A stretch of 64,000 bases of DNA from Dehalococcoidia bacterium (lineage in GTDB: Bacteria > Chloroflexota > Dehalococcoidia > UBA2979), in contig OZ252046.1 in the NCBI GenBank assembly GCA_965247895.1, positions 951,140 to 1,015,139 of the forward strand. Direction: 5' to 3'. The translations under genes were made by a program, and so were the position numbers. Within the stretch, counting starts at the first letter, position 1. Every line of letters begins with the position of its first letter. A model generated the notes under the pieces. It was not told where the DNA came from, did no database searches, and saw nothing but the letters and a program-made list of their open reading frames with translations. Of this stretch, positions 1-17,122 are shown in pieces.

Positions 1-3000
1 TCACGATGATGGTGTCGCTGAGTGTCCCTGGGTCGGTGGCGGTGACGGTGACGGTGTGCGAGGGCACCGTCTCGTAGTCGAACATGGGGTTGGCGGCCAC
101 CCGTATCTGGCCGGTTGCGCTGTCCACCGTGAACTTGTCGGAGCCCGTCAGCGTGTAGCTCAGATTCCCTGCGTCCTCGGCGTCGTCGGCCACCACCCGC
201 TCCCCGACGGTGGCAGTGGCCCCTGCGTCCTCGGGCACGGAGCGCGTCGTGTTCGCAGCGGGGAACTCCGGGGCGGTGTTCACGGGCGGCTTGGCCTGGA
301 CACGGTTTCGCGAGACCGCGGAGATACTTATGTCCGTGTCCGGGCTGTATCCGTCCCTATACGTGGCGGTGGCGCGCAGGTAGTAACCGATGTCGCCTAC
401 GACCGGCGTGTAGCTGTCAGCCGTGGCGCCGCTGATCAGCTGCCAGCCGCTCCCCCGGCTCGTCGACCGCTCCCACTTCCACGTCGTCGACTGCACGATG
501 TCGGCGTCGGTCAGTGTCGCCGTGAACGGCGCCTCCACCTGCGGCTGCGGCGAGGAGAGGCCGAGCATCGCCCGTTCGTTCACATTCGTGACATCCACCG
601 TGACCCTCGTGACCGCTGAGCCGTTCGCATCCGTGGCCGTGACCTCCACTTCGTAGCTGTCCTTGGTCTCGTAGTTGAGGGCGCTCTCCGTCCGCAGCTG
701 GCCGCTGGTGGCGACGATCGCGAACGATGAGGCGTCGGCTCCGCCGAGCGTGTACGTGGTCGAGCCGTCCGTGGCCGCGGCCGTAACCGGCGGGCCGATG
801 TTCCTGTTCCGCGACGTGTTCTCCTCGACGGTGCGCGTGGTGCGGACGGACTGGAGCGCGAAGGACAGAGTCGCGATCGGCTCCGTCGAGAATTTGCCCG
901 TTCCCCGGATGCTCGTGATGACCCCCTGCGGGTCGGTGGCCGCGTTGCCCAGGGAGAACCCCGTGCCTTCCTCCGTGCCCGCGTCCCACGGGTAGAGGTT
1001 GACGGTGTGGGAGCGCAGCCAGCGGCCGCTGCTGTTGAGCAGGGGCAGGCCGGAAACGCCCACGAACCAGTCGGGGCTGGGGGCGACCATCGTGACCAGC
1101 GTGACGCGCGGGTGGGTGGTGGCAAGCGTGGGGTTGAGGCTCTGTGTGGCCGTTACCCCGCCCGTGTCCGTGCTGCCCTGGAACAAGCTGAGCGCCGTGG
1201 CCGGGTTGGCGCCGATGGCTGTCTGCACCTCGCTCCGCAGGGTCGTGATCGTTCCGTCCTCCGCCATCGACTCGACCCCGGCGCTGGCCGTCCCGCCGCT
1301 CGCGAGGAAGCTCACGCCTGCGTTGTGGACGGCGCCGGCGAGGCGGGAGAAGTGCGCGCCGCCGGGAACGCCGTCAGGCGTGACCTTGGCGTACCACTTG
1401 CCCTCGAACTCGACGTCATAGGTCGCTGTCGATGGGAACGGCGCGACGGGATCGCTCGCCGGGGGGGTCAGCGAGGTGTCTTGCCTCGTACGGGTCACCG
1501 TCACGATGTAGGTCCTGGTGCTTCCGTTCGCGGCTGTCACCCTGATGGTGATGACGTTCTGGCCCACCGACGGGTTCACCTGGTAACCGTCGGCATTGGT
1601 GTCGGCGTCGACGCGACCTACGAGCGTAGCCACGGCACCGGCATCGTTCTCGCTCGCGGTCACCGTGATCCCCGTCACGGTGTAGCCGACGGATGCCGTG
1701 TACCAGGTGACCTCAGTGTCGAAGGAGGGGCTGAGCCTTGCCCCGCTCAGTGACAGCGCGCTCAGGGTGGCGTCCGCGGAGAGGGGGGTGCCTGTGCCCG
1801 TGTCCGACCAGTCCCCGTCGCCGGCGCTGTTGGCTGCCCGCACCTCCACGTCGTAGGAGACGCCGTTGGTCAGCCCCGCGATGGTGTATTCCAGGTCGCC
1901 CGAGGTCCAGGCGATCACTTCGTCCCAGTTGGCGTCGGCCTTGTCCGTCGCGTCGGTGCGGATTGAGTGCACGTCGTAACGGGTAATGGCGGCGCCGCCG
2001 TTGGAGGCGGGCGCGCTCCATTGCACGGCGAGCTCCCCGTCGCCGGCGGTCACGGAAGAAACCCCCGGCACTCCGGGCACCACGGGGGGCTGCATCTGCT
2101 CGGCGGCCTCGCCGATGTTGTTATAGTTTTCGGCAGAGACGCGCACACTCGAGCCGGGCGCTGTGGCAGTCGTCTGGTGGGCGAGAGTCCCCGAAACATC
2201 GGTGATCTTCGCGGAACGGGTGTCGTCGTACTCCTGGTCCGCATCCTTCCACTCCACCCGGTAGGCGGTGATGGCTTCACCCCCGTCGTAGGCCGGCTTC
2301 TCCCAGGTCACCCGGCCGTCCGCGGCCAGGGCGACCGCTGCGGGAGCCTGGGGGACGCAGCCGCCGGCTCGCCATGGATTGCGGGTGGGGGCCCTGCCGT
2401 ACAGGGCCTCCGTTGCTCGCTGCCGATCGCAGTAGGCCCCGAATGCGTTCCGCAACGCGAACGCAGCCGCGTGTTTCCATGCCCCCACGCCCTTGACATC
2501 AGTCCACACCTTTTCGAGGTCGTACTGCTTGTCGTATTTCGGATCCGTTGAGGTGTCATAGGGAACGGTGTCGTCCTCGTAGGTTGTGTCGAACCAGGCC
2601 GGCATTGTCTTGGCGAGGACGCTGTTGATCATGGTCAGTGTAGTTGCAGAGGGCGTATCTCCTGTTCTGGAACAAGGAGGGAAGTACGTCGAAAGAGAGC
2701 TTGCCACGGTGCCGCTCTCGACAGCATCGGCATAGAGCTCATGGATCTGACAGCCGGTTCCGCCCGCTACGAGGTCTGCAAAGTAGAGCCACGCGATGCC
2801 GCGACCCTCGGAGTCTCGTCCCATAAGCCGCGCTCCGGCATTGTAGACGTGGCCCAGCTCATGGAGATAGACGCCTGTGTCAGATGCGGCGTTATTACCA
2901 ATGTCAACGCGAGTGACTTCACAGGCAACCAGAGTCCCTATTCTTCTCGAACTGCAATCCAGGAAGACCCTGCTGTCGGAGACTGTTGCACCAATTGGAG

Positions 3001-3510
3001 TGTTTAAACGCCGCATGTAATCGTACAGCTCGCGCACCCATGGGTCGTCTGCTTCGTATGCGGCAACAACCCCCGTCTTCAGGAAGTGACCTCGTTGCTC
3101 ACTTTCGGACTGGGTTTTGAACCCAGGCGTACGAAGCTTGACATCGGTACCCAGGGTGACGAGGAGGGCGTAGAGCGTGTCCGCAGTCAGTCCCGTCAAG
3201 TCGAAGGTGACGGAGGTGCCGTTGGTCATCTTGCTCGTCACCAGGTCGGCGCCGTCGGGCTGGGCCCTGTACTTGAGAGCAACCGTCTGCTCCGTCGAGC
3301 CGGGATTGGCGATGGTGACTGTCACGCTCGCCGTCGTTCGTCCGGTCTCGCCGAACTCCACGCCGGTGATGTTCCCGCTTGGCGCAGCCGGCAGGTCGTA
3401 GGCATAGATCTTGACCTTCGCCTCATCGCCCACCCAGAGGGTGTTCCCGCTGGAGGTGACGCCCCACGGCGCCCCATTCTCGCGGGCCAGTTGTATCTCC
3501 GGGGGGGCTG
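1..3510 (-). CDS. C-terminal portion of giant secreted surface protein A: FN3-like modules, HEXXH Zn-metallopeptidase-like region, spondin_N-like domain, cadherin-like modules. The 3' end lies beyond the window start. Same gene as 3322..5499 after a +1 frameshift at the G7 run 3501..3507.
   Basis: Minus-strand frame with codon first bases at positions congruent to 1 mod 3 is open from 3510 to position 1. Hand translation gives ...PEIQLARENGAPWGVTSSGNTLWVGDEAKVKIYAYDL (a propeller blade)...VYLHELGHVYNAGARLMG (HEXXH)...ATYDVEFEGKWYAKVTPDGVPGGAHFSRLAGAVHNAGVSFLASGG...SPDWFVGVSGLPLLNSSGRWLRSHTVNLYPWDAGTEEG (spondin_N-like)...YETVPSHTVTVTATDPGTLSDTIIV (cadherin-like). It is absent from the ORF track because there is no stop codon inside the window. 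Confidence 0.6.
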
Positions 3511-5499
3511 CCGATCGCCGACACCGGCGGTACCCAGGGCATAGGCGAATATCCTGTCCAGGGCGTCGTCGGCGACCCACAGCGCGGACCCGTTGGACCA
3601 CATGCCCCTGGGTTGCATGTAGGAGGTGGCGAGGTCGCCCTCTTTCGTTGTGTCGCGCGCTCCGAAGGTACCGGTGCTGCCGATGTTGTAGGCGAAGACG
3701 TGCTCCCGGACGTGGCCTGCTATCCACATCGTGGTTCCGTCGGACCACACCCCCCTCGGGTGGCCATTCTCGGGCGCTATCTCGAAGCTCTTCGCGGTGT
3801 CGAGCCTTCCGAAGGGGCTGCCTGAGAGCGAATACGCGTACACCTTGTCGTCCTGCTCGTCGACTACCCACAAGGTGCCGCTGTTCACGTAGACGCCGCG
3901 TGGAGCGGCGTTCTCGCCGTCGAGCACGAAGCTCTTCGAGCTGACGAAGCCCTTGTTGCTCAGGTTGTAGGCGTCGACGCGGTCGCTGCCCCCCGTGGCC
4001 CTGTCGTACACGACCCACAGGGTGGCGCCGTCGGTCCCGATGCCGCGCATCTGCCCGATCCCGACCAGGGCAAGGTCACGCTGCGCCGGCCGCACCAGCA
4101 GCTCCGCGGTGACCTCGGTCCCGTCGGCGAAGGTGCTGTCGAGTGAGGCCTGGACCACGAGGCGCGGCGCCGATCGCGCCCCGGAGAGCGTGAAGTCGAT
4201 GGTCTGTCCGCCTGTCGCGTTGGTCGTGGACCATGCATCGGTGAAGGGCTCGCGGTAACGCAGGTACACCGTCTTGCTGGGGTTGGGGTAGCTGATGTCG
4301 GCGCGAATGGTGGCGGCGGTCTGCGTAGCGGAGACGAGGGACAGCGCGGATACGCTCGGGTCCGGCTTCGGCTGGTAGTAGGCGAAGACCTTCGATCCGC
4401 TGCGGCGGCCGTCCAGGATCCAGAGATACTCCCCGTCTCCCCACATGTCGCTGGCTCCCAGTGAGTCGACAGCATTGGCGTGAGCGGTGTTCAGCGGGAT
4501 ATTCAGGTGCGGCAGCGGGATGCCGACCCTCAGATCGAGGGCGTAGAGCATCCGGTCCCGGCCGTCGACCGCCCACATCGTCTGACCGTCGGACCAGATG
4601 CCGCTCAGGGCGTAGCTGCCGTCCTTGTGCAGGGTGATGTCCTTCGCCGTGTCGCGTCCGCCATACGGGCGTTCGTAGGCATAGGCGTCGTGCTGAGGGT
4701 AAACGACCCAGAACGTGTCGCTGTTGGCCCAGATGCCCTTCGCGTCGGAGTGGCCGCGGGCGAGCCTGAATTCCCTGCTCGATTGCCGGGAGCCGTCCGA
4801 AAGCTGGTAGGCGTAGGCTCGGAATTGGGACCGGTCCACGGCGTACAGGTAGGTCCCGTCGGACCAGAGGCCCCCTGGGCTGTGGTTGCCGAGGCCTGGG
4901 GTGATGTCTTTCGCCGTGTCGCGGTCGCCGTGCTGGGCGGCCGGTGTGCGCTTGTAGGCGAGAATCGTCGTCGAAGTGCCAAGAGTAAACCCGTCGGAGA
5001 TGACCCAGAGCGTGTTGGCGTCTCCCGCGATGCCCGTGGGAAGGTCGCTTCCGGCCAACGTGATGTCGAGATGCGCCGGCCGGTTCTGGAAGGTGCTGCT
5101 CTCGACGCCGGTCGCGAAGGTCGAGTCCGCCGACACCTCGATGTCGTAGTAGGCGTTCGCCGCCAACGCCGTGAGGCTGAAGGTCACGTCCCCCGCTTGC
5201 GACGCGTTGGCGGTCCACAACAACGCTCCCCAGTCGTCCTTGTCATGGAGAGAGAGCCGCAGATAGAACGTTCCCATCCCACTGACCGTCGCGGTGGCGG
5301 TCGCGGTGGTCCGGGCGCTGCTCGCCACTGTGCCGGCACTCACGGTGGCGGTCTGGGCGGAGACCGATGCGACACGACCACTCAGGGCTGCAAACACGAC
5401 AACAAGCAGCACAATGCCTATCAGGGTTGCGGAACGCGGCAGAGTGGCGCTCATACCCGCGCTTCGTGCCGGGAGCAGCCCACCGTGTTGCCGGAGCAC
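3322..5499 (-). CDS. N-terminal portion of giant secreted protein A: signal peptide plus at least 10 divergent WSDG-type (PD40/TolB-like) beta-propeller blades. The C-terminal ~60 aa of this ORF are out-of-frame junk after the G7 frameshift.
   Basis: 725-aa ORF in the track. N-terminus MSATLPRSATLIGIVLLVVVFAALSG...AQTA looks like a signal peptide. Repeats such as GIWSDGQTMWAVDGRDRMLYALDL, GVWSDGTTMWIAGHVREHVFAYNI and GMWSNGSALWVADDALDRIFAYAL. The Arg-rich tail ...DRQPPRRYNWPARMGRRGASPP follows the G7 run. Confidence 0.7.
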   Translation of the reverse strand: MLRQHGGLLPARSAGMSATLPRSATLIGIVLLVVVFAALSGRVASVSAQTATVSAGTVASSARTTATATATVSGMGTFYLRLSLHDKDDWGALLWTANASQAGDVTFSLTALAANAYYDIEVSADSTFATGVESSTFQNRPAHLDITLAGSDLPTGIAGDANTLWVISDGFTLGTSTTILAYKRTPAAQHGDRDTAKDITPGLGNHSPGGLWSDGTYLYAVDRSQFRAYAYQLSDGSRQSSREFRLARGHSDAKGIWANSDTFWVVYPQHDAYAYERPYGGRDTAKDITLHKDGSYALSGIWSDGQTMWAVDGRDRMLYALDLRVGIPLPHLNIPLNTAHANAVDSLGASDMWGDGEYLWILDGRRSGSKVFAYYQPKPDPSVSALSLVSATQTAATIRADISYPNPSKTVYLRYREPFTDAWSTTNATGGQTIDFTLSGARSAPRLVVQASLDSTFADGTEVTAELLVRPAQRDLALVGIGQMRGIGTDGATLWVVYDRATGGSDRVDAYNLSNKGFVSSKSFVLDGENAAPRGVYVNSGTLWVVDEQDDKVYAYSLSGSPFGRLDTAKSFEIAPENGHPRGVWSDGTTMWIAGHVREHVFAYNIGSTGTFGARDTTKEGDLATSYMQPRGMWSNGSALWVADDALDRIFAYALGTAGVGDRQPPRRYNWPARMGRRGASPPAGTPSGWAMRRRSRSMPTTCRLRQAGTSPAWSSARPDERRRA

Positions 5500-6329
5500 A
5501 TCGCCCGGCTCAGGGCAGCCTGCGCCCAGGCGCGATCCGGCGGGTGGCTAGCGAACAGCGAGCCGGCCAGGCTCGCGGCCCCTGGCACCGGAAGCCGTCC
5601 GGCGAGCACGCCACGGAGCAGCACGGCGCGGAAAGTGGAACCGGTGATCTGCGCCGAAGTCACGACGGTTCCCCCCCGCAAGAAGCGCCCCCGTGGGCGC
5701 CTAGCTAGGGCAACCTAGCACGGTCGTGTCGTTCAATCGATGCATATCCGTGATAAATACGTGAAACTTTGCTCAAACCCGTGAAGTTTTCGGTGAATCA
5801 AGTCCCATTGATGCTCACCACCAGCCTTTCACGGCACGCGCCCAGGGAACTCCAGCAGCGCATAGGCCAACCCGAAGGTGAGGGCGAGTCCTCCTCAGCC
5901 CGTCTCCGGCACGCTTGCTAGTGGCTGCTCTCCGGGCGCTCGGGTCGCGATCACAGGGGTGGTGCAGCGGCACGCGCACCGGGACGACAACGATGTCCAT
6001 GTCCGGACGCTGCACCCTGTCATCGATGTCGTGGAACGTCAGCTCGGCGCCGAATTGGGCGGCCGAGGCCCTCGCCGTGTCTTCGTGTGCCATGCAGACG
6101 GCCTTGAGCTCGTAGTCAGGGCAAAGAGGCCAGCGCTGGCACGCAGCACTCGATACGGTCACGCGGCTGGGCGCGGTGGACCCGGGGCTCGTGGCCATCG
6201 AGGCGGGCCGCATCGCCGACGGCCGCCGGGAGAGCGGCGTCGGGAATAGGACAACTTGGGCGGTTCGACCGCCCGAAGCCGAACCTGGCCGGCTACGACG
6301 CGCTGCTCGCCGCGAGCACGGGATGAGCA

Positions 6330-6513
6330 CGCCCATGACCGAGCAGGCGGCCGCGCTGACGCCCCGCACACTTGACTTCACTCGCTGCGGCATACGGCCG
6401 GGAGCCAGTCGATCCTGGCCGGCACCGACCTGCTGACGGTTTCGCGGCGGCTCGGGCAAGCGTCCGCGTCGTTCACGATGGATATCTACGGGCACATGTT
6501 GCCGGGGCAATAG
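6330..6513 (+). pseudogene. Degraded C-terminus of a tyrosine recombinase (phage integrase): box II and catalytic Tyr region, disrupted by an indel
   Basis: One frame reads ...LHSLRHTAGSQSILAGTDLLTVSRRLGQASASFTMDIYGHMLPGQ* (HxLRH...Y motif), ending at a stop at 6511..6513. The preceding ALTPRTL segment is in another frame, with a stop between them. Removing a 14-nt stretch would restore ALTPRTLRHTAGS. Confidence 0.5.
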
Positions 6514-6551
6514 GGCCCTGCGGCCGAGGCGCTTGACCACTTGATCAGGTG

Positions 6552-6617
6552 AATGGCCCCAGAATGGCCCCAGATTGGCCCCAGATTGGCCCCAGGATGG
6601 CCCCAGGATGGCCCCAC
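6552..6617. repeat. 11-bp tandem repeat, 6 units (aatggccccag / attggccccag / gatggccccag), between the integrase remnant and the tRNA-Glu 3' end
   Basis: Read directly at 6552..6617. Confidence 0.8.
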
Positions 6618-6664
6618 TCGAGCCGACTGAACGAACGCATGCGGCCGAAAAGGCCTGTGAACGT

Positions 6665-6740
6665 TGGTGCCCCCAAGGGGGTTCGAACCCCTGTTTCCAC
6701 CTTGAAAGGGTGGCGTCCTGGTCCCCTAGACGATGGGGGC
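6665..6740 (-). tRNA. tRNA-Glu (anticodon TTC)
   Basis: Reverse complement of 6665..6740 is GCCCCCATCGTCTAGGGGACCAGGACGCCACCCTTTCAAGGTGGAAACAGGGGTTCGAACCCCCTTGGGGGCACCA. 7-bp acceptor stem, anticodon loop CTTTCAA, T-loop GGTTCGAA, 3' CCA. Confidence 0.9.
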
Positions 6741-6919
6741 GAGCGCTGATCGAGCATACCAAGGACCGGGCGCAGTTGCCCCCGCACGCCGCGAGGCCGC
6801 TTCGACCGCGCGACGCCCCTCGGAATCTCCCGCACTGGGTGCGTAGCTCGCGCGCTGCGGCACTGGCGCGCACGCGCCGCGTGCCGCACCATTCGAGGCT
6901 CTAAGCCAGGAGCAGCCAT

Positions 6920-8386
6920 ATGACAAGCGATCCGATCCTTCCGCAAGCCCGCATCGTCGATGAGTACGAGAGCCCCATATCGGGGTATCAGCTGCTGATG
7001 ATGGTGCGGATCGCCAACTCGCCCGGCAAGCTCGGCATGCTCGCCACCACGATCGGTGAGTGCGGCGCAGACATCGGCGCGATCGACATCTACGAGGCGG
7101 GCCCCAACCACATGGTCCGGGAGTTGCGGGTCTTCTGCCGCGACGCCGTGCATGCCCGCGAGGTCGTGGACCGGGTTGACGCCCTCGACGGCGTGGAGGT
7201 GCAGCGCGCCTCGGACCGCACCTTCCAGCTGCATCGTGGCGGCAAGATCGAGATCGCGAACAAGGTGCACATCCGCACCAACGCCGAGCTCTCCCATGTC
7301 TACACGCCCGGCGTCGCGCGCGTCTCGATGATGGTGCACGACGAGCCGGACTCGGTGTGGGCGCTGACCGCGCGCCGCAATACCGTCGCCGTCGTCACCG
7401 ACGGCACCGCGGTGCTCGGCCTCGGCGACATCGGCCCGGAGGCGGCGATGCCGGTCATGGAGGGCAAGTGCATGCTCTTCAAGAGCTTCGGCTCGATCGA
7501 CGCCTGGCCGATCTGCCTCGACACCAAGGACCCCGACCGCATCGTGGACATCGTCGAGGCGATCGCGCCGGGCTTCGGCGGCATCCTGCTCGAGGACATC
7601 TCCGCCCCACGCTGCTTCGACATCGAAGAGCGGCTCGTGGAGAAGCTGGACATCCCGGTCTTCCACGACGACCAGCACGGCACCGCCGTCGTGGTCCTCG
7701 CGGCGCTGATCAACAGCCTCAAGATCGTCGGCAAGAAGCCCGAGGACCTGAAGGTCGTCGTGCTCGGCGTCGGCGCCTCCGGGATCGCCTGCGCTCGGAT
7801 CATGCTCAACTACGGCGTGCGCGACATCATCGGCTTCGACCGCACCGGGGCCGTCTACCCCGGCCGCGAGAACCTGAACCCGGCGAAGGAGTGGTTCGCC
7901 GAGCACACCAACCCGGACGGCTTCAGCGGCGACCTGACGCAGGCGATGCGCGGAGCGGACATGTTCCTCGGGCTGTCGGGCCCGCGCATGCTCTCGCCGG
8001 AGCAGGTGGGCAGTATGGCCGACGACGCGATCGTGCTGGCACTCTCCAACCCGGAGCCGGAGATCATGCCGGAGCTGATCCAGGGCAAGGCCCGCGTGAT
8101 CGCCACCGGGCGCTCCGACTACCCGAACCAGGTCAACAACGTGCTCTGCTTCCCCGGGCTCTTCCGCGGCGCCTTCGACGCCGGCGCGAAGCGCATCACC
8201 GAGGAGATGAAGCTCGTCGCCGCCCACGCCATCGCCGAGGTCATCCCCGACGACCAGATCAACGAGGACTACATCCTGCCCTCGGTCTTCAACGAGGCGG
8301 TCGCGCGCAACGTCGCCGCGGCAGTCGCCGCGGAGGCGCGCCGCACCGGCAACGTCCGCCAGCCCGGCTCGCGGGTCTTCGTCTAG
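6920..8386 (+). CDS. NAD(P)-dependent malic enzyme with N-terminal ACT domain
   Basis: 488-aa ORF with motifs VYTPGVA, VVTDGTAVLGLGDIG and VLGVGASGIA. Confidence 0.9.
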   Translation: MTSDPILPQARIVDEYESPISGYQLLMMVRIANSPGKLGMLATTIGECGADIGAIDIYEAGPNHMVRELRVFCRDAVHAREVVDRVDALDGVEVQRASDRTFQLHRGGKIEIANKVHIRTNAELSHVYTPGVARVSMMVHDEPDSVWALTARRNTVAVVTDGTAVLGLGDIGPEAAMPVMEGKCMLFKSFGSIDAWPICLDTKDPDRIVDIVEAIAPGFGGILLEDISAPRCFDIEERLVEKLDIPVFHDDQHGTAVVVLAALINSLKIVGKKPEDLKVVVLGVGASGIACARIMLNYGVRDIIGFDRTGAVYPGRENLNPAKEWFAEHTNPDGFSGDLTQAMRGADMFLGLSGPRMLSPEQVGSMADDAIVLALSNPEPEIMPELIQGKARVIATGRSDYPNQVNNVLCFPGLFRGAFDAGAKRITEEMKLVAAHAIAEVIPDDQINEDYILPSVFNEAVARNVAAAVAAEARRTGNVRQPGSRVFV

Positions 8387-8392
8387 CCTGTC
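8111..8392 (+). repeat. Left copy (~282 bp) of an identical direct repeat. It is the native 3' end of the malic-enzyme gene; the right copy is at 10816..11097.
   Basis: Nucleotide identity from gctccgactacccgaaccaggtcaac... through ...gtcttcgtctag. The two copies diverge immediately after the stop codon. Confidence 0.85.
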
Positions 8393-8574
8393 CAGTCTCG
8401 TTAGATGCGGCGGGCGCCGTCCCTCGCACGCCACTTGATCCCGAGCCGGATCGGGCTCCTTCGCGATGTCGAACGCGACCCGCGCCACTACAACTCAGAC
8501 TGCGCCCATACCAGCCGCTCGAATGGTCCCGACACGCAGCCGGATGTGTCGCCGGATTCTGGAGATAGGGCAGC

Positions 8575-9843
8575 CTAGCTGCCGCGCAGCGTACGGAGCA
8601 GGTCGCCCATCCTGGGTGGCTGGCCGTACGCCAGCAAGTAAGCCCGGAAGAGGCGGGCCGTGAGCCAAACGACGATCGCCACGCTGAGGGAGAGGACAGC
8701 GAGACTAACGAAGACCTCCAAGCCGTCCATGCCACCGAGACTCAGCCGCATGAGGCTCGCCATTGGGGCAGTAATCGGGACGAAGCTGAGCGCCCTCGCA
8801 AGCGTCCCGTCGGGGTCATCCAGCAGGGCGGGCAGGAACCACATCGGAGCGATAGCAGGCAGCATCACGAACGCGGTGATGCTCCCCGCCTGCTGTTGGT
8901 TGGTGGTGACCGCCCCGATGGCAGCCAGCAACGTGCCAATGAGAGCGTAACCAAGGAGGAAGTAGGCAAACGCAATAAAGAGCCACCCGGCCGAAGGTAC
9001 ATGCGTCAACTCGGAGGGCGCCCCGATCATGCGGCCGAGTGCGAGTAGGAAACCGACGCCAGATACGGCCCAGACTGCCACCTGCAAGAGGCTCGCGGCT
9101 CCCAGCCCGATGAGCTTTCCGAGCATCAGATGCTCCGGCTCGATCGAGGAGAGCAACACCTCCATGATGCGGTTCTCCTTCTCCTCGGACAGACCTTGCA
9201 ACAGGTAGCCAGACGCGGTGAGCGCCGACACGACGAACAATAAGCTCACAGCGACGAAGAGCAGGCTGTCGGCCACGTCAGAGTCCTCATCGGCGGGCGC
9301 ACCCGACTCGGTCACTTCATCAATCACGAGTCGATAGGGCGTGATGATGCGCTCGATCCGCTCCGAGTCGACCTGTCCGGATGTCAGGTTCTCGACGACG
9401 AATCGGTGAAGAGCGCCATCCCGTCGGCCGGAGCCGAACAACCCGGCGCTCTCCTCCTGAACCTCCACCACCGTCCCCGTCTCCAGGTAGTCTGCGGGAA
9501 ACACGAAGAGCCGCTCGATCCGTCCTTCAAGAAGCGCGCCTGTGGCTGTCTGCCGGTCCGGGTACGCCGTGAAGACCGTGCTGCCCTGCCTCTGGAACCT
9601 GGTGAAGTGCGGCTGGCCGTCCTCGCCAGTTGTGAGGTCGACGTAGCCGAACATGAACGTTTCGGGGGGAATAGCGGAAGGAGTGTCCTCTTCGGACGTG
9701 TCAGACCTCACCGTCTGAAATACGGCGGCGCCGACGAGGCCGAGTATTGCCAGGACGGGGACTGAAGCGACGAAGATGCGGTAGGCGAGTCGGCCGAGGG
9801 TGACGGAGAACTCGTGCCGCGCGACGAGCCATGTCTTACGCAT
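8575..9843 (-). CDS. ABC-2 family transporter permease
   Basis: The ORF 8575..10050 carries a 69-aa out-of-gene N-terminal extension. The likely start is ATG at 9843 (MRKTWLVARHEF...), which overlaps the ATPase stop within ATGCGTAA (translational coupling). About six transmembrane segments. Confidence 0.8.
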   Translation of the reverse strand: MRKTWLVARHEFSVTLGRLAYRIFVASVPVLAILGLVGAAVFQTVRSDTSEEDTPSAIPPETFMFGYVDLTTGEDGQPHFTRFQRQGSTVFTAYPDRQTATGALLEGRIERLFVFPADYLETGTVVEVQEESAGLFGSGRRDGALHRFVVENLTSGQVDSERIERIITPYRLVIDEVTESGAPADEDSDVADSLLFVAVSLLFVVSALTASGYLLQGLSEEKENRIMEVLLSSIEPEHLMLGKLIGLGAASLLQVAVWAVSGVGFLLALGRMIGAPSELTHVPSAGWLFIAFAYFLLGYALIGTLLAAIGAVTTNQQQAGSITAFVMLPAIAPMWFLPALLDDPDGTLARALSFVPITAPMASLMRLSLGGMDGLEVFVSLAVLSLSVAIVVWLTARLFRAYLLAYGQPPRMGDLLRTLRGS

Positions 9844-10771
9844 GACGGTCCTCGACGACTCGAAGGAAGATCTCCTCCAGGCTCGGCGTTGCAAACTCGT
9901 ACCGGTCAATCTTCGCGCCGCGGTCGAGCAGTGTCCGCAGCACCGCCTCCGGGGGGTGGCCGCTTGCAAGTTTGAGCACGTATCCGGAACCCTCCCGCCG
10001 GGACCCGAGCACTCCGTCAATCGCCTCCGACGCCCGGTCGCTCGCGACAAAGACCTCGCTACCAGCGAAGCGGCGCTTGATCTCGGTGAGAAGGCCTTCG
10101 AGCACGAGGCGGCCGTCGTCGACCATCAGGATGCGGTCGCACAGTTCCTCGACGTCCGTCATCTGATGGGTTGAGAACATGATGGCGACGCCTGCGGCAC
10201 GCCGCTCAGCGACGATGTCCTTCATGAGTCGCACGTTGATCGGGTCCAGCCCGCTGAACGGTTCATCGAGTACGACGAATGCGGGATCATGGATGAGCGT
10301 CGCCGCGAACTGCACGAGTTGGCCGAGTCCCCGGCTGAGTTCGCGGACCTTCTTGTCCCGGTGCTCCTCGAACCCGAGACGTTCGAGGAGTTCGTTGGCA
10401 CGGCGTAGAGCGGGTTCCCGGGAGACACCTCTGAGTTCGGCCAGATAGAGAAGGTTCGGGATGACCCGGAGATTGCGGTAGAGGCCGCGTTCTTCCGGGA
10501 GGTAGCCGATACGTTCACGGGTTTCCGGGGTAACGGCGGCACCGAATATCGCCACATCCCCAGCGTCCGGCCGGATGATGTCGAGGAGCATGCGGATGGT
10601 AGTGGTCTTGCCGGCGCCGTTCGGGCCAACCAGTCCGATGATCTCGCCGGGCCGCACGGACAGGGAGACATCCTGTACCGCTATCCGGTCGCCGAACCGC
10701 TTCCACAGGCCGGTGGCCTGGACGACGGGAGTAGTCGCCGGAGTCATTGCCATAGACCGGGATCGTAGCAC
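9836..10771 (-). CDS. ABC transporter ATP-binding protein
   Basis: Walker A GPNGAGKTT, ABC signature LSRGLGQ, Walker B VVLDEP. Confidence 0.85.
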   Translation of the reverse strand: MLRSRSMAMTPATTPVVQATGLWKRFGDRIAVQDVSLSVRPGEIIGLVGPNGAGKTTTIRMLLDIIRPDAGDVAIFGAAVTPETRERIGYLPEERGLYRNLRVIPNLLYLAELRGVSREPALRRANELLERLGFEEHRDKKVRELSRGLGQLVQFAATLIHDPAFVVLDEPFSGLDPINVRLMKDIVAERRAAGVAIMFSTHQMTDVEELCDRILMVDDGRLVLEGLLTEIKRRFAGSEVFVASDRASEAIDGVLGSRREGSGYVLKLASGHPPEAVLRTLLDRGAKIDRYEFATPSLEEIFLRVVEDRHA

Positions 10772-10815
10772 GGGGCCATAGCTGTGGTGCGTCGGGGCAC
10801 GCGCTCTCCAACGGC

Positions 10816-11091
10816 CGCTCCGACTACCCGAACCAGGTCAACAACGTGCTCTGCTTCCCCGGGCTCTTCCGCGGCGCCTTCGACGCCGGCGCGAAGCGCA
10901 TCACCGAGGAGATGAAGCTCGTCGCCGCCCACGCCATCGCCGAGGTCATCCCCGACGACCAGATCAACGAGGACTACATCCTGCCCTCGGTCTTCAACGA
11001 GGCGGTCGCGCGCAACGTCGCCGCGGCAGTCGCCGCGGAGGCGCGCCGCACCGGCAACGTCCGCCAGCCCGGCTCGCGGGTCTTCGTCTAG
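10816..11091 (+). pseudogene. Duplicated 3' fragment of the malic-enzyme gene (last 81 codons, identical to 8111..8386). This is the right copy of the direct repeat.
   Basis: ORF 10846..11091 encodes MLCFPGLFRG...RVFV, identical to the malic-enzyme C-terminus. No upstream gene body is present. Confidence 0.8.
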
Positions 11092-11099
11092 GCTGTCGC

Positions 11100-11400
11100 C
11101 CCCCCGAGGGCGCTCCGATCCCCTCTCCCCTGGCGGGAGAGGGTTAGGGTGAGGGGGACTCCGAGGCAGATCGCGTGTCGCCTGCCGGGGGGCTGCGCCC
11201 CCCACACCCCATCCCGGACGAGCGCGCTGCGCGGCTCCGGCCCACCCACCCGCCCTCGGATGTTCTTTCTGTGGGGGCTCCGCCCCCACGCCCCCGCCCG
11301 GATCGGCAGCCGGAACACAGCCTCGAGGGCGCGCCTTCGGATCCCCTCTCCCGCGAGGGGAGAGGGAGCCGGAGCGCCCTCGGAACGGGGTTTTCGCAAA
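11100..11400. repeat. Two copies of a REP-like GC-rich palindromic element (cccctctccc-N4-5-gggagagggg cores inside longer imperfect palindromes)
   Basis: First copy: cgagggcgctccgatcccctctcccctggcgggagaggg. Second copy: cgagggcgcgccttcggatcccctctcccgcgaggggagagggagccggagcgccctcgg. Confidence 0.5.
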
Positions 11401-11432
11401 GGTCTCCAGAGGGAGAGCGGACAGATCGCGGC

Positions 11433-12071
11433 CTACTGGTAGGAGTAGCGCTGCTCCTTCCACGGGTCGCCGTGGATGTGGTAGCCGTACATCTCCCAGA
11501 AGCCGGGGCGCACCTCGGGCAGGAACTCGATGCCGCGCACCCACTTCGCGCTCTTCCAGAAGTAGAGCTGCGGGATCACTCCGCGCAGCGGACCCCCGTG
11601 GTCGCGATCGATCGGGTTGCTGTCGTGCGTGTGCGCGAGCAGCACGCCCTCGTGCAGCAGCTCGTCGAGCGGCACGTTCGTCGTGTAGCCGCCGTAGGAG
11701 TGGAACATCACTTCCTTCGCCTCGGGCAGCACCTTGGCGAGGGCCATCACGTCGGTGAAGCGCACGCCGCGCCAGTGGTTGTCGTAGCGGCTCCAGGTGG
11801 TCACGCAGTGGATGTCCGAGGTGTCCTCCGCCTGCGGCAGCGCGTTGAACTCCTCCCAGTTGATGCGCACTTCCTCCTCGACCAGGCCGAAGATGCGGAA
11901 CTCCCAGGTCGCGAGGTCGATGCGCGGCGATGAGCCGTAGGTCAGCACCGGCCAGCCGTCCGTCAGCCGCTGCCCCGGCGGGAGCCGATCCTCGGGCGGG
12001 CGCACCGGCTTGCGGCCGGGCAGATTGCTTGTCGTCACGACGGCTTGCTCCTCACCCTGACGTCTCGTCAA
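11433..12071 (-). CDS. Molybdopterin-dependent oxidoreductase (sulfite-oxidase fold, YedY/MsrP-like catalytic domain)
   Basis: Conserved Mo-ligand Cys motif DIHCVTTWS. 212 aa. Confidence 0.8.
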   Translation of the reverse strand: MTRRQGEEQAVVTTSNLPGRKPVRPPEDRLPPGQRLTDGWPVLTYGSSPRIDLATWEFRIFGLVEEEVRINWEEFNALPQAEDTSDIHCVTTWSRYDNHWRGVRFTDVMALAKVLPEAKEVMFHSYGGYTTNVPLDELLHEGVLLAHTHDSNPIDRDHGGPLRGVIPQLYFWKSAKWVRGIEFLPEVRPGFWEMYGYHIHGDPWKEQRYSYQ

Positions 12072-12187
12072 TGGTCCTCAGTTGGGGCGTGCGCGCTCGC
12101 GCGCGCCGCTCACAGCCATCGTAGCGGATGCACGCTCAGAGGCGAGGGCGAACGGACCGCAACGGCGCCCTTCGATAGGATGGAGGC

Positions 12188-12712
12188 ATGGAGCAGGCCG
12201 TCGCCGCGACCGGATCGGACGAGGACGCCGCGCGTCCGGGCGCGATGCGCGGGCAGCTCCGGCGCTTCGCCGGCATCGCCGCGGCGGTCGTGATCCTCGA
12301 CCAGCTGACGAAGGCGCTCGTGCGCGCCTGGCTGAGCGAGGGCGAGACCTGGCCCGAGGGCTTCGATCTGATCCGCATCTCGCACGTCGAGAACTCCGGG
12401 GCCGCGTTCGGGATCCTGCAGGATGGAGGCCCGTTCCTGATCGCCAGCTCGATCCTCGGCGCCATGATCGTGCTGATCTTCCTGCGCGCAGCCCCGCCCG
12501 GCGACCGCCTCTACGAGACGGCGCTGGCGTTGGTGCTCGGCGGCGCGGTCGGCAACCTGATCGACCGGCTCTTCCGAGGCACGGTGACGGACTTTATCGA
12601 CCCCACCCACTACCCCTCCTTCAACATCGCCGACTCCTCGATCGTGGTCGGCGTGTTCGCGCTCGCCGTGATCTCCCTCTTCCGTCCCGGCAGCAAGCCG
12701 GAGAGCGCCTGA
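12188..12712 (+). CDS. lspA: Lipoprotein signal peptidase (signal peptidase II)
   Basis: Motifs VENSGAAFG, GGAVGNLIDR and FNIADS. Confidence 0.9.
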   Translation: MEQAVAATGSDEDAARPGAMRGQLRRFAGIAAAVVILDQLTKALVRAWLSEGETWPEGFDLIRISHVENSGAAFGILQDGGPFLIASSILGAMIVLIFLRAAPPGDRLYETALALVLGGAVGNLIDRLFRGTVTDFIDPTHYPSFNIADSSIVVGVFALAVISLFRPGSKPESA

Positions 12713-13662
12713 TGCAGCAGGAACGCTTCGCCGCAGCGCGCACGGACCGGCTCGACCGGCTCGTCGCCGAGCAGCTCGTGCACCTCTCGCGCAACCAGGC
12801 GCGGCGGCTGATCGACGAGGGCCGCGTCGAAGTCGCGGGCGAGCCGCGGACCCACGCCGGCCGCGAGGTCGCCGAGGGGACCGCGATCACCGTCCGGCTC
12901 CCGGCGCAGCCGGACCTCGACGCGATGGCGCTCGACGTGCCGCTCCAGGTGCTGTTCTCGGACGAGCACACGCTGATCATCGACAAGCAGGCGGGGCTGC
13001 TGGTGCATCCCGTGCAGGGCCGACCGGCGGTCACCCTGATACACGCCGTGCGCACCCGCTACCCCGAGGTGCAGGAGATCGGCGGGACGCGCTCCGGCCT
13101 CGTGCACCGCCTCGACCGCGACACCTCCGGGGTGATCGCCTTCGCACGCTCCGCCGCCGCGCGCGACGCGCTGCGCGCGCAGTGGAAGGCGCGCGAGACG
13201 CTCAAGATCTACCTCGCCATCGCCGAGGGCGTCGTCGAGCCGCGCCGCGGCCACATCGATGCGCCGCTCGGCCCCGACCCGGCGAACCCGACCCGCCGTG
13301 CCGTCGTCGAGCGCGGCGACTCCGCGTTCAGCGAGTACCGAGTGCTGGAGCAGTACGGCGAGGAGGCCGCCTTGCTCGAAGTCCGTATCCTCACCGGCCG
13401 CACGCACCAGATCCGCGTCCACCTGCAGGCGACCGGCCACCCGATCCTCGGCGACGGCGTCTACGGCCGGCCCTCGCCGCGGATCGCGAGGCAGGCGCTG
13501 CACGCTCGCCGGCTCGGGCTGTGCCTGCCCTCGAGCGGCGAGTGGCGCGAGTTCGAGGCGCCGCTCCCGCAGGACCTCAGCGACGCCATCGACGCGCTGC
13601 GCGCCGACCACGGCGTGGAGGCGCAGCCGCTGGCGGCGTCCGGCACGGGAGGCCCGCTATGA
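12712..13662 (+). CDS. rluD: RluA-family 23S rRNA pseudouridine synthase (RluD-like) with S4 domain
   Basis: MQQERFAA... start ATG overlaps the lspA stop (TGATG). Motifs HRLDRDTSGV and GRTHQIRVH. The long ORF 12082..13662 is an out-of-gene N-terminal extension. Confidence 0.85.
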   Translation: MQQERFAAARTDRLDRLVAEQLVHLSRNQARRLIDEGRVEVAGEPRTHAGREVAEGTAITVRLPAQPDLDAMALDVPLQVLFSDEHTLIIDKQAGLLVHPVQGRPAVTLIHAVRTRYPEVQEIGGTRSGLVHRLDRDTSGVIAFARSAAARDALRAQWKARETLKIYLAIAEGVVEPRRGHIDAPLGPDPANPTRRAVVERGDSAFSEYRVLEQYGEEAALLEVRILTGRTHQIRVHLQATGHPILGDGVYGRPSPRIARQALHARRLGLCLPSSGEWREFEAPLPQDLSDAIDALRADHGVEAQPLAASGTGGPL

Positions 13663-15143
13663 GCGTCCGCGTCCGCTACGCGCCCAGCCCCACCGGCGAC
13701 CCGCACGTCGGCAACATCCGCACGGCGATCTGGACCTGGCTGCACGCCCGCCGCCACGGCGGCGCCTTCATCCTGCGCATCGAGGACACCGACCAGTCGC
13801 GCGCCGTCGAGGGCTCCGTCGAACGCATCGAGGACTCGCTGCGCTGGCTCGGCCTCGAGTGGGACGAAGGCCCCGGGGCCGGAGGCGACTACGGCCCCTA
13901 CGTGCAGTCGCAGCGCCTCGATCGCTACCACGCCGCCAGCGAGGCGCTGCTTCGCGACGGCCACGCCTACCGCTGCTTCTGCACCCCGGACGACCTGCGC
14001 ACGATGCGCGAGCGCCAGCGCGCCGCCAGCCGGCCGCAGGGCTACGAGGGCGCCTGCCGCGACCTCGACGCCGCCCGGGCCGCCGAGCGCGCCGCCGCCG
14101 GCGAGCCGCACGTGATCCGCTTCCGCATGCCGCGCGAGGGCGTCACGACGTTCAGCGACCTGATCCGCGGCGAGATCCGCTACGAGAACCGCCTGCTCGA
14201 CGACCTCGTGCTGCTCAAGTCGGACGGCTTCCCCACCTACCACCTCGCCCACGCCGTCGACGACCACGCGATGGCGATCACGCACGTCACCCGAGGCGAC
14301 GAGTGGATCCCCTCGACGCCGCGCCACGTGCGGATCTTCGAGGCGCTCGGCTACGAGCCGCCGATCTTCGTGCACACGCCGGTGATCCTCGGGCCGGACG
14401 GGGGCAAGCTCTCCAAGCGCCACGGCGCGCAGTCCGTGCTCGACTACGCCGACCAGGGCTACCTGCCCGAGGCGCTGCTCAACTTCCTCGCGATCATGGG
14501 CTGGGCGATCGACGACAAGACCGAGATCCTCTCGGGCGAGGAGATGGCCGCCGCCTTCGACCTCGCCGACCTCAACCCCGCGCCCGCCGCCTTCAACAGC
14601 GAGAAGCTGGAGTGGATGAACGGCGTCTACATGCGCCAGCTTCCCGAGGCCGACCTGACCGCGCGCTTCGCCGAGCGCCTCGACCGCGACCTGCCGGACT
14701 CGGTGGAGCGGCCGGCCGACCGCGAGCTGGTCGCGCAGTTCACCCCGCTGATCCGCGAGCGCGTGAAGCTGCTCTCCGAGGTCGCCGGCCTGACCGACTT
14801 CTTCTTCGCCGAGGACGTCCCCGTCGCCGAGCCGGACGAGTTCCTCGGGCGCTCCTTCCGCAAGCAGCCGGAGCAGGCCGCGCCCGCGCTCGCCGCCGTC
14901 GCGACGGCGCTGGAGCCGCTCAGCAGCGACTGGACTACCGAGACCCTCGAGGCCGCACTGCGCGCGCTCGCCGAGGAGTTGGGCGTGCGCGCCGGCGACC
15001 TCTTCATGCTCTGTCGCGTCGCCGTCACCGGAAAGCGCATCACCCCGCCGCTCTTCGAGACGATGGAGATCGTCGGCCCCGCCCCCTCCCTCAAGCGCCT
15101 CGCCGCCGCCGAGGCGGCCCTGCGCGCCGCCTACCCCGCCTGA
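13659..15143 (+). CDS. gltX: Glutamyl-tRNA synthetase
   Basis: HIGH motif PSPTGDPHVGN and KMSKS-like KLSKRHG. Start ATG overlaps the rluD stop (ATGA). Confidence 0.9.
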   Translation: MSVRVRYAPSPTGDPHVGNIRTAIWTWLHARRHGGAFILRIEDTDQSRAVEGSVERIEDSLRWLGLEWDEGPGAGGDYGPYVQSQRLDRYHAASEALLRDGHAYRCFCTPDDLRTMRERQRAASRPQGYEGACRDLDAARAAERAAAGEPHVIRFRMPREGVTTFSDLIRGEIRYENRLLDDLVLLKSDGFPTYHLAHAVDDHAMAITHVTRGDEWIPSTPRHVRIFEALGYEPPIFVHTPVILGPDGGKLSKRHGAQSVLDYADQGYLPEALLNFLAIMGWAIDDKTEILSGEEMAAAFDLADLNPAPAAFNSEKLEWMNGVYMRQLPEADLTARFAERLDRDLPDSVERPADRELVAQFTPLIRERVKLLSEVAGLTDFFFAEDVPVAEPDEFLGRSFRKQPEQAAPALAAVATALEPLSSDWTTETLEAALRALAEELGVRAGDLFMLCRVAVTGKRITPPLFETMEIVGPAPSLKRLAAAEAALRAAYPA

Positions 15144-15223
15144 GCGGCAGCCTCGAGGCGCACGGCGCGCCCTCGGGGGATCGTGACCACTGGCCGAGGC
15201 TTTGCTAGGGTGGAGAGGTCCGC

Positions 15224-15297
15224 TGGGGACTCGTCTAATGGTAGGACAGCTGACTCTGGATCAGTAGGTCGGGGTTCGAATCCTCGGTCCCCAGCCA
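15224..15297 (+). tRNA. tRNA-Gln (anticodon CTG)
   Basis: TGGGGAC acceptor stem, anticodon loop CTCTGGA, T-loop GGTTCGAAT, discriminator G, then CCA. 74 nt. Confidence 0.85.
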
Positions 15298-15490
15298 ATA
15301 CGCCGTATACGATTTCGGGGCCGTACTGGACAAGCTGTCCATGAACGCTGTCCGGTACGGAGCGCGGGCGCAGGGGGTAGGAGCCGCCCGGACGAGCTAG
15401 AAGAGCGAGTCTCGTTCAACGAGCAGCCGCGACTGGGGAGGTCGATATGGAGAGCTTGCTTAGCTGCTGCACGACTGAGGTGCTGGCACA

Positions 15491-17122
15491 GTGAGCACAA
15501 TAGACGGCGCTATAGACCTCACTATACCTGGGCTATCTGGAAAGCCTTTGAGCATCACAATACAAACTGGTGAATCCATCTTTGTTATGGGTGCGAATGG
15601 AACAGGTAAATCAACTCTCATACATCACCTCAATAACGAGCACAACGCGCGAGCGCGATTCATACCTGCTAATCGTCAAACATGGATGGAATCTAACTCC
15701 GTTACTATGAACTCGCGCGACAAGGAACAGACAGAACGGAATATAAGACAAGGGACCACCCGTGCTGACGCCCGGTTCCGCGACAACTATTCTGGCGCGC
15801 GAGTCAGCTTGTCCATAGCGGAGCTGCTGGCAGCTGAGGCCGCGCGAGATCACGACATCGCGATTGCGATTGATCGCGGGAAGCCCAAACGTGCGCGGAA
15901 GATATCAAGGAACCGTCCGTCGCACTTGAGAACGATTTCTTCGCTCTTACAGTCATCAGGTCTTCCAATCACAATAAGCGCTCACAATGGTGAGGAACTC
16001 CGAGCCGTCAAGCACGGACAAGAGTATAGTATCGAACAACTATCGGACGGTGAGCGCAATGCCTTTTTACTTGCCGCAACCATCCTCACTACCGAACAAG
16101 GAACGCTTTTCCTGTTGGATGAGCCTGAGAGGCATCTGCATAGGTCCATTTCAGGAAGGCTGATTTCGTCGCTCATTGCGGAGCGAGCCGACTGTTCGTT
16201 TGTAATTGCCACACACGACATTACACTTCCGAGCAAGGAAGAGGATGCCAGAGTCATTCTCTTGACGGCTTGTCAATTCAGCAACGGGCAAGCTATCGGG
16301 TGGGATGCGAAGCTCCTTCCGCAGGGCGAAGCCATAGACGAGGATATCACGAGGGATATATTGAGCTCGCGCAAGAGGATTTTGTTCGTCGAAGGCGTGG
16401 ATGGTAGCCTCGATATTGAGCTCTACCGTATCGCCTTCTCCAGCGAGAACGATATTGACGTCGTGCCCAAGGGTGGGTATCCGGCAGTCGAATCTTCGGT
16501 TAGGGCGATCCGCGGGTCCGAAGCGCTCTATTGGATGGAAGCCTTCGGTATTATCGATCGGGATGGCCGCGCAGACGATGAAGTGTCAGCCTTACGCAAG
16601 ACTGGAGTGTACCCGCTGGAGGTGTACTCCGTGGAATCGATCTACTACCATCCAAAAATCCAGAGGGAGGTAGCGGAACACTTATACGAGAGCCCAGAGG
16701 ACAAGGTTACGGCAGCTCGCGCAGCCGCCATCGAAGAGATAGCCAAGCAAAAGGAAGGCTTGGCCACGCGGGCTCTTGAGAGGATGGTGCGCCGAGCTAT
16801 CCTCGAACGAATCCCTGGACGAGAGGCTATCTCGGCAGAACTGTCTGTCCGAATTGAGATCGACATGACGGACCTACCACAAGATCCGCGTGCAGATCTG
16901 GAGCGAGCGATCGACGACAACGATCTCGAGTACATCATGAAGCACTACCCGATTAAGCCGGGCAACGTCCGGGGAGTGATCGCGCGACAACTCGGGTTCA
17001 CGAACCGGACGGCATACGAGCGGAATGTCCGCAAGGTGCTCCGTCACAGGCCTCAAGCGTTGGAGTTCGTCAGGTCCTTGCTTGGAGGCCTCCCTTCGGA
17101 CCTTACCGCTTCAGGGTCATAG
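15491..17122 (+). CDS. Fused ABC-type ATPase + TOPRIM-type nuclease domain protein (OLD / PARIS-AriAB-like), on a low-GC islet
   Basis: Walker A GANGTGKST, ABC signature LSDGERNAF, Walker B LFLLDEPERHLH, H-loop ATHD. The C-terminal half has TOPRIM-like motifs ILFVEGVDG (conserved Glu) and GIIDRDGR (DxD). GC is about 45% against about 70% for the flanks. GTG start. Confidence 0.8.
   Translation: MSTIDGAIDLTIPGLSGKPLSITIQTGESIFVMGANGTGKSTLIHHLNNEHNARARFIPANRQTWMESNSVTMNSRDKEQTERNIRQGTTRADARFRDNYSGARVSLSIAELLAAEAARDHDIAIAIDRGKPKRARKISRNRPSHLRTISSLLQSSGLPITISAHNGEELRAVKHGQEYSIEQLSDGERNAFLLAATILTTEQGTLFLLDEPERHLHRSISGRLISSLIAERADCSFVIATHDITLPSKEEDARVILLTACQFSNGQAIGWDAKLLPQGEAIDEDITRDILSSRKRILFVEGVDGSLDIELYRIAFSSENDIDVVPKGGYPAVESSVRAIRGSEALYWMEAFGIIDRDGRADDEVSALRKTGVYPLEVYSVESIYYHPKIQREVAEHLYESPEDKVTAARAAAIEEIAKQKEGLATRALERMVRRAILERIPGREAISAELSVRIEIDMTDLPQDPRADLERAIDDNDLEYIMKHYPIKPGNVRGVIARQLGFTNRTAYERNVRKVLRHRPQALEFVRSLLGGLPSDLTASGS

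Follow-up and report, generated by a model that had tools for sequence, protein, structure and literature searches.

The subject of this analysis is a two-gene operon encoding a predicted exporter of the ABC-2 (ATP-binding cassette) type, which lies between two direct copies of the 3′ end of a malic-enzyme gene in the genome of a Dehalococcoidia bacterium (Chloroflexota). The whole stretch of DNA analyzed, referred to as the window, comprises 64,000 nucleotides (nt) of contig OZ252046.1 (assembly GCA_965247895.1, positions 951,140–1,015,139 of the forward strand), and the coordinates given below are those of the window unless a locus of another genome is named.

Organization of the locus

The malic-enzyme gene at this locus is intact (6920–8386, plus strand). 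It encodes a protein of 488 amino acids (aa) with the Pfam domains malic and Malic_M, and all homologues sharing 98–99% identity with it are likewise 488 aa long. The protein matched the NCBIfam model of NADP-dependent malic enzymes with a score under the curated cut-off. An exact-protein look-up returned no record of this malic enzyme or of the ATPase of the exporter operon.

Repeats were sought between positions 6000 and 13000, and their exact bounds were set by pairwise alignment and string comparison. The only long direct-repeat family found there pairs 8095–8392 with 10800–11097 (298 nt, 98% identity). Its exact core, 8111–8386 and 10816–11091, is identical at 276 of 276 positions by both methods, and a perfect repeat of this length within 64 kb cannot have originated by chance. 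The right end of the core is the TAG stop codon of the malic-enzyme open reading frame (ORF). An earlier inspection of the letters alone (the sequence-only reading) had extended the identity from 8111 to 8392. This holds as far as 8386 but not beyond, as the first position past the stop codon differs between the copies (8387 C versus 11092 G), after which CTGTC at 8388–8392 matches again before the sequences diverge. At the left edge (8095–8110 versus 10800–10815) only approximately 10 of 15 bases match. In related genomes the exact repeat starts 8 nt sooner, at the equivalent of position 8103, and the window carries one private substitution per copy at this edge (8110 and 10811); the ancestral repeat unit is about 284 nt long.

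The two copies correspond to one contiguous piece of the target gene (8103/8111–8386 and 10808/10816–11091), i.e. the last 92–94 malic-enzyme codons and the stop codon. They are 0.28 kb each, lie 2.7 kb apart and have the same orientation. The left copy, H(left) (8103–8386, plus strand; exact part 8111–8386), forms the 3′ end of the functional gene, with the last 92 codons and the stop codon in its exact part, and it is joined to insert-derived DNA with the ORF kept intact. The right copy, H(right) (10808–11091, plus strand; exact part 10816–11091), is the displaced native 3′ end. It retains only the C-terminal part of the Malic_M domain and adjoins native downstream DNA.

The segment separating the copies (8387–10815, 2,429 nt) is composed of a spacer (S), the operon and about 50 nt of an upstream segment (U). 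Spacer S (8387–8574) is a non-coding, insert-derived sequence of 188 nt between the stop codons of the malic-enzyme and permease genes; translation of its three forward-strand frames gave no match in Pfam. At the novel joint the TAG stop codon is followed by CCTGTCC, which shows patchy microhomology to the native TAG GCTGTCG. The sequence-only reading had described the interior of the segment as a two-gene ABC-2 exporter, and Pfam searches bore this out for both genes, boundaries included. The ABC-2 type permease gene (8575–9843, minus strand) encodes a 422-aa protein with an ABC2_membrane_3 domain (5e-39). It overlaps at 9836–9843 with the gene of a DrrA-like ABC ATPase (9836–10771, minus strand), whose product contains ABC_tran and DrrA1-3_C domains. 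The ATPase ORF starts with GTG at 10771 (311 aa), and the form called in relatives (305 aa) corresponds to the ATG at 10753. Segment U (10754–10807) is the short upstream region of the operon and ends at the second novel joint, at malic-enzyme codon ~395. The G+C content of the operon is 0.61–0.65, compared with 0.67–0.72 in the flanks. A scan of 8000–12200 for promoter and terminator consensus sequences detected no sites.

The operon resembles those of DrrAB-type ABC-2 exporters in the domain composition of its ATPase (ABC_tran with a DrrA C-terminal domain), the ABC2_membrane_3 permease and the overlap of its two genes. Unlike in curated DrrAB exporters, NCBIfam scores lie under the cut-off (212.7 bits against TIGR01188, drrA, for which the cut-off is 312), and the permease has no NCBIfam match and no relative by sequence in the PDB. 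At the family level, the operon is predicted to encode a generic DrrA-like ABC-2 exporter.

Occurrence and age of the insertion in related genomes

Loci whose malic enzymes share 98–99% identity with that of the window were treated as the close clade, which comprises 12 loci (L081–L088 and L097–L100). Eleven of these cover the whole region, and L088 stops within spacer S. At least seven ENA assemblies contributed these loci, mostly on contigs of 0.13–4 Mb. A large protein collection contained 26 malic enzymes at 98–99% identity and a few at 90–92%, one of the latter being labelled "Chloroflexi bacterium" by its source. The clade is a putative species-level group of uncultured Chloroflexota. 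A locus on a 1.9-Mb contig (L089), whose malic enzyme is 92% identical at the aa level, served as the outgroup. When contigs of species-representative genomes were searched with the malic enzyme, the best match had 60% identity, and 80 loci were kept as a panel. The comparisons included 84 other malic-enzyme loci (L001–L080, L089 and L094–L096) and 84 other operon loci (L090–L093 and L101–L180).

In the outgroup L089, the malic-enzyme stop codon is followed by GCTGTCG, a 94-nt spacer and a convergent Oxidored_molyb gene. The same GCTGTCG follows the stop codon of the right copy in the window, which places this copy in its native context. Since L089 has a single malic-enzyme 3′ end at an empty site with contiguous flanks, the transporter together with one repeat copy is an insertion. 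This agrees with the sequence-only reading, which had pointed to relatives carrying a malic-enzyme gene without the transporter as the place to look, and L089 is such a relative. Its proposal of a single crossover or a duplication-insertion also fits the layout, in which a direct copy of the target piece stands on either side of the insert. Two contigs assembled from short reads of a 91% relative (L094 and L095) both stop about 260 nt past the malic-enzyme stop codon, in a long poly-G run. Their ends look like an assembly break in a spacer rich in repetitive extragenic palindromic (REP) sequences, and the state of the site (empty or filled) is not readable there.

The order malic enzyme, S, permease, ATPase, U and malic-enzyme 3′ fragment, or a degraded version of it, was found in all 11 spanning loci of the clade. 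In the window the two copies of the repeat do not differ; each of the other 11 genomes shows 2–11 differences between them over 276 positions. Suspicion that a repeat had been collapsed or wrongly joined would rest here only on the general risk that identical repeats pose to assemblers. The same structure recurs in the ENA assemblies mentioned above, mostly on long contigs. Because independent assemblies resolve it with copies that are non-identical and hence distinguishable, we consider an assembly artefact practically excluded.

The identity of the repeats had been taken by the sequence-only reading as the sign of a recent event, i.e. a Campbell-type integration or duplication-insertion in this particular genome. 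The 276/276 identity in the window and the empty site in a relative would both be in accord with such an event. However, all 11 spanning relatives share the arrangement and the same joints with repeats that have diverged, an outcome which that reading had itself named as speaking against recency, and derived alleles specific to the window are present in both of its copies. Moreover, the insert has diverged among strains to about the same extent as its surroundings. Compared with the window, the two genes are 96.5–99.1% identical and the spacer 95.2–96.8% (S, permease and ATPase thus spanning 95–99%, and 95–100% when U is taken together with them), while the flanking core, composed of the malic-enzyme 5′ part, Oxidored_molyb and lspA-rluD, is 96.0–98.9% identical. 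The insertion is therefore older than the diversification of the clade and younger than the split from the 92% lineage, and its recent origin in the window genome is very improbable.

Spacer S occurs only in the 98–99% clade. The nearest operons outside it (L090–L093; 75–78% aa and 81–82% DNA identity) are located in unrelated contexts, either between MR_MLE and Lit genes or amid insertion sequences (ISs), and DNA homology with the operons of other lineages is limited to the coding part (8575 to ~10756). No remnant of Lit or MR_MLE, the genes neighbouring the operon in other lineages, was found in S and U. Metagenome contigs searched with the permease yielded a best match of 54% identity and no match adjoining a malic-enzyme gene. 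In plasmid and phage collections just generic ABC ATPase motif matches were obtained, with no similar record.

Within the clade, the insert is often damaged. The operons of L082 and L084 are interrupted by ISs (L082 11143–12468 and L084 11032–12357), the permease of L099 is truncated, in L098 the sequence from S through most of the ATPase gene has been replaced by IS debris (9468–11313), and in L097 an IS481-type element lies within S (9756–10676). As the operon is broken by ISs, truncated or deleted in several strains, it is dispensable and is undergoing piecemeal loss in this IS-rich population. The IS hits on the operon and spacer are independent across strains, and the elements are of the DDE_Tnp_1_4 and IS481-like types.

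Probable exchange between the repeat copies and possible origins of the insertion

The two copies have accumulated changes of different kinds. Comparison across the clade revealed three synonymous and no non-synonymous changes that are private to the left copies. In the right copies of relatives, five synonymous and 12 non-synonymous changes are private, and in six genomes these abolish the stop codon. Since private changes are exclusively synonymous on the left and mostly non-synonymous on the right, with stop loss, purifying selection acts on the left copy, which completes the working gene, whereas the right copy is a promoterless, truncated and decaying relic without a gene start of its own.

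Dispersed repeats can evolve in concert through gene conversion, as is the case for Salmonella tufA/tufB and for rRNA operons. At the locus described here, seven positions (8224, 8238, 8311, 8319, 8323, 8344 and 8374) vary among left copies as well as among right copies, and do so with identical alleles; at position 8224 each of three alleles occurs in both sets. Seven of 276 sites are too many for parallel mutation to be a plausible cause, and variants have hence moved between the copies. The derived states 8311C and 8319C are present in both copies of the window and in the left copy of its nearest relative, L081, but absent from the right copy of L081, which suggests that conversion ran from left to right in the line of the window. 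The L081 right copy has a cluster of differences at 8296–8315, including the outgroup states 8298A, 8304T and 8315T, and looks like an older, unconverted version. The joints also vary: the right copies of L081 and L082 carry malic-like sequence further to the left, and the left copy of L084 carries 11 nt of native-type sequence past the stop codon, as expected from conversion tracts ending at different points. The mean left–right distance was 4.2 within genomes and 4.9 between them (permutation p = 0.02), a comparison made among related genomes and with L081 (11 differences) as an exception.

Gene conversion between the copies best explains their identity in the window, which would represent the fully homogenised case, with the decay of the right copy erased. 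The occurrence of the same alleles in both copies, the homogenisation in the window and the variable tract ends are features shared with concerted evolution of the tufA/tufB type. Here, in contrast, one of the partners is a non-functional 0.28-kb fragment that decays between conversions.

An alternative source of shared alleles would be mobility of the operon itself. It might constitute an integrase-free cassette powered by homologous recombination between the 0.28-kb repeats, in which a circle of H, S, operon and U would loop out and re-enter naive relatives by a single crossover at the malic-enzyme 3′ end, and repeated cycles of this kind would account for the alleles. Such a cassette would use the end of a housekeeping gene as its attachment site. 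We regard this scenario as quite improbable.

The sequence of events we favour, with gene conversion as its last stage, would be the following. In the ancestor of the clade, a 2.43-kb segment composed of S, operon and U would have entered the malic-enzyme gene at its 3′ end. Its entry would have left the terminal ~284 bp of this gene in two copies and produced the order malic-enzyme 5′ part, H(left), S, permease, ATPase, U, H(right) and native downstream DNA. The direct copies would since have exchanged sequence repeatedly, through RecA-type gene conversion or an equivalent unequal exchange, and in the window genome H(right) would most recently have been overwritten by H(left), producing the 276/276 identity.

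Three routes of entry fit this layout, and we rank a single crossover slightly first. In this most economical route, the chromosome would have undergone a single homologous crossover with a circularised DNA that contained H, S, operon and U, and the circle would have been closed at the joint between U and H by illegitimate joining at patchy microhomology. In conjugation experiments with Escherichia coli, single crossovers of circular molecules duplicated 109–950 bp of the homologous segment, and they accounted for 56 of 60 clones, far above homology-facilitated illegitimate recombination (PMC3240628). The locus shares with Campbell-type insertion-duplication the contiguous target piece duplicated directly on both sides and the empty site in a relative. 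It differs in that no vector, replicon, circular form or donor with H linked to S was found, and in that the event is old and clade-wide.

Several observations weigh against the favoured account. No circular form, donor or replicon was seen, and Pfam searches of the insert identified no replication, mobilisation or recombinase gene. None of the 84 other malic-enzyme loci and none of the 84 other operon loci has a malic-enzyme gene naturally adjoining S or the operon; as no sampled genome joins them, the linkage of H to S that a Campbell donor needs is undocumented. The stop codon is precisely where the homology ends, as predicted for a replacement 3′ end borne by an element and not for a plain crossover. 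As regards conversion, the excess of within-genome similarity is modest and comes from phylogenetically non-independent genomes, and instead of strictly intrachromosomal conversion, repeated cycles of excision and re-integration or exchange among strains could have produced the shared polymorphisms.

The features of the joints bear on the second route, a one-step illegitimate event. This could have been template switching (similar to microhomology-mediated break-induced replication, MMBIR), end-joining capture at a staggered break or homology-facilitated illegitimate recombination of a linear donor, whose non-homologous end would have been joined inside the malic-enzyme gene 284 bp upstream of the stop codon. 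One novel joint lies in patchy similarity (TAG-N-CTGTC at 8384–8392 and 11089–11097), the other shows the ~10 of 15 matches at 8095–8110 and 10800–10815, and the insert is trimmed tightly around the operon, with 188 nt on one side, about 50 nt on the other and no extra genes. Displaced 3′ ends in type VI secretion system (T6SS) and Rhs loci have been credited to homology-facilitated illegitimate recombination (PMC5361080). On the other hand, such events were much rarer than single crossovers in the E. coli experiment (PMC3240628), the patchy matches could be due to chance in DNA of 70% G+C, and microhomology at the joints is not measurable, as the source flanks are not known. A one-step illegitimate origin is thus possible, yet doubtful.

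The exact coincidence of the homology with the stop codon is what a replacement 3′ end requires, and the third route accounts for it best. Here the insert would descend from a site-specific integrative element (e14 or phage 21-icd type) that was stripped by the later deletion of its integrase and remaining genes. Element e14 (15 kb) carries an integrase and an excisionase, resides in the icd gene of E. coli and leaves the icdC pseudogene (PMC13626634). The layout of the malic-enzyme locus is identical to icd–e14–icdC (PMC13626634), with the left copy joined to foreign and the right copy to native DNA. In both cases the ORF of a metabolic gene is kept by an inserted copy of its 3′ end, the native end becomes a fragment pseudogene on the far side, and the direct repeats are able to recombine. 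The right copy of L081, the oldest-looking one, is unlike all left copies at clustered positions and keeps outgroup states there, as if the copies had initially been unlike. Unlike e14, however, the insert described here is 2.4 kb long and holds an exporter operon only, and its repeat (~284 bp) exceeds that of e14 in length. No integrase, excisionase or remnant of either was found within 8387–10815 in any strain, and later IS insertions aside, none of the 11 spanning clade loci has a recombinase between the copies. None of the 84 other malic-enzyme loci contains a second malic-enzyme 3′ fragment; the target is not reused and no element family targeting this gene was encountered. The repeat of ~284 bp is also long for an attachment site. 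We consider this origin unlikely.

A transposon or IS was also tried as a candidate and rejected: the ends of 8387–10815 carry no inverted repeats, no transposase domain was found, and the duplication measures ~284 bp instead of 2–14 bp.

Taken as a whole, the account of an old, clade-wide insertion-duplication with a decaying right copy and repeated conversion, for which a single crossover would be the most economical origin, is one we hold with good confidence. The locus also has a parallel in the orphan ends of Rhs and T6SS loci, where a conserved gene anchors the incoming DNA and the old 3′ end, pushed downstream, persists (PMC5361080). There, the new 3′ end encodes a new toxin domain, whereas in the present case both ends encode the same protein sequence. 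The structure adds a new case to known phenomena, insertion-duplication at a gene 3′ end and the subsequent concerted evolution of the repeats, and it opens no new biological question. It shows three textbook processes within a single 4-kb locus (an operon was gained and the target end duplicated with it, the displaced fragment decayed, and conversion erased that decay) and provides a clean natural example from a population of uncultured Chloroflexota for which many long assemblies exist. It also calls for caution, as perfect identity of flanking repeats does not date an insertion; repeats of this kind should be judged against population data before they are called recent or artefactual.

Downstream sequences and wider surroundings

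The native spacer behind the right copy contains a 280-nt element (11104–11383) bounded by 40-nt inverted arms at 11104–11143 and 11344–11383. Each arm holds a REP-like hairpin of the type CCCCTCTCCC...GGGAGAGGG, and the element as a whole folds strongly (z-score −3.8). The two REP-like palindromes that the sequence-only reading had noted after the right copy are therefore real and correspond to these arms. Single hairpins of the same type are present in other Chloroflexota loci, namely in L089 (9500–9545, in the 94-nt spacer) and in L091–L093 (~16806–16841). The element resembles a dispersed repeat of the REP or miniature inverted-repeat transposable element (MITE) kind and is separate from the insertion event.

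The Oxidored_molyb gene identified with Pfam (11433–12071, minus strand) is the native convergent neighbour of the malic-enzyme gene, to which it is adjacent in L089. In most relatives (L082–L087 and L097), a PNPOx_N gene (171 aa) is located between the malic-enzyme fragment and Oxidored_molyb (e.g. L083 12598–13113); it is absent from the window (11092–11432), from L081 and from the outgroup L089. In the loci with this gene the sequence type switches right after the stop codon of the fragment, so that this spot is polymorphic a second time, for the presence or absence of PNPOx_N. In L099 and L100 (12175–17467), genes such as VTT_dom and PAC2 follow the right fragment in place of Oxidored_molyb-lspA-rluD, and a rearrangement breakpoint lies directly behind the fragment and its REP-like sequences.

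Two tRNA genes flank the region, tRNA-Glu(ttc) at 6665–6740 (minus strand) and tRNA-Gln(ctg) at 15224–15297 (plus strand), and an Rfam scan of 6000–16000 detected nothing but these. The block bracketed by the tRNA genes (~6584–15371) is the only part of the window collinear with the 98–99% relatives. Past the 3′ end of each tRNA gene, the gene content differs by strain and includes ISs, RVT_1, a histidine kinase and cadherin-like giants; these regions have the appearance of variable islands linked to the tRNA genes. An 11-nt tandem repeat, GAATGGCCCCA, present in six units at 6551–6616, lies at the left synteny break, 3′ of tRNA-Glu, and may be an attachment-site or island-border feature. In the part of the window upstream of this break (1–6500), the six longest ORFs have no Pfam match, and this part is strain-specific island content. 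Directly past tRNA-Gln, the ORF at 15491–17122 (plus strand) encodes ABC_tran/AAA_21 and DUF4435 domains, a predicted OLD-like ATPase-nuclease architecture typical of defence islands. Further along the window, tandem arrays were found within long ORFs at 36385–36743, 38042–40317 and 50128–50450, with units of 18 nt (20 copies), 234–279 nt (two copies) and 42 nt (seven copies) as well as 18/24/30-nt arrays, and these ORFs probably encode repetitive surface proteins.

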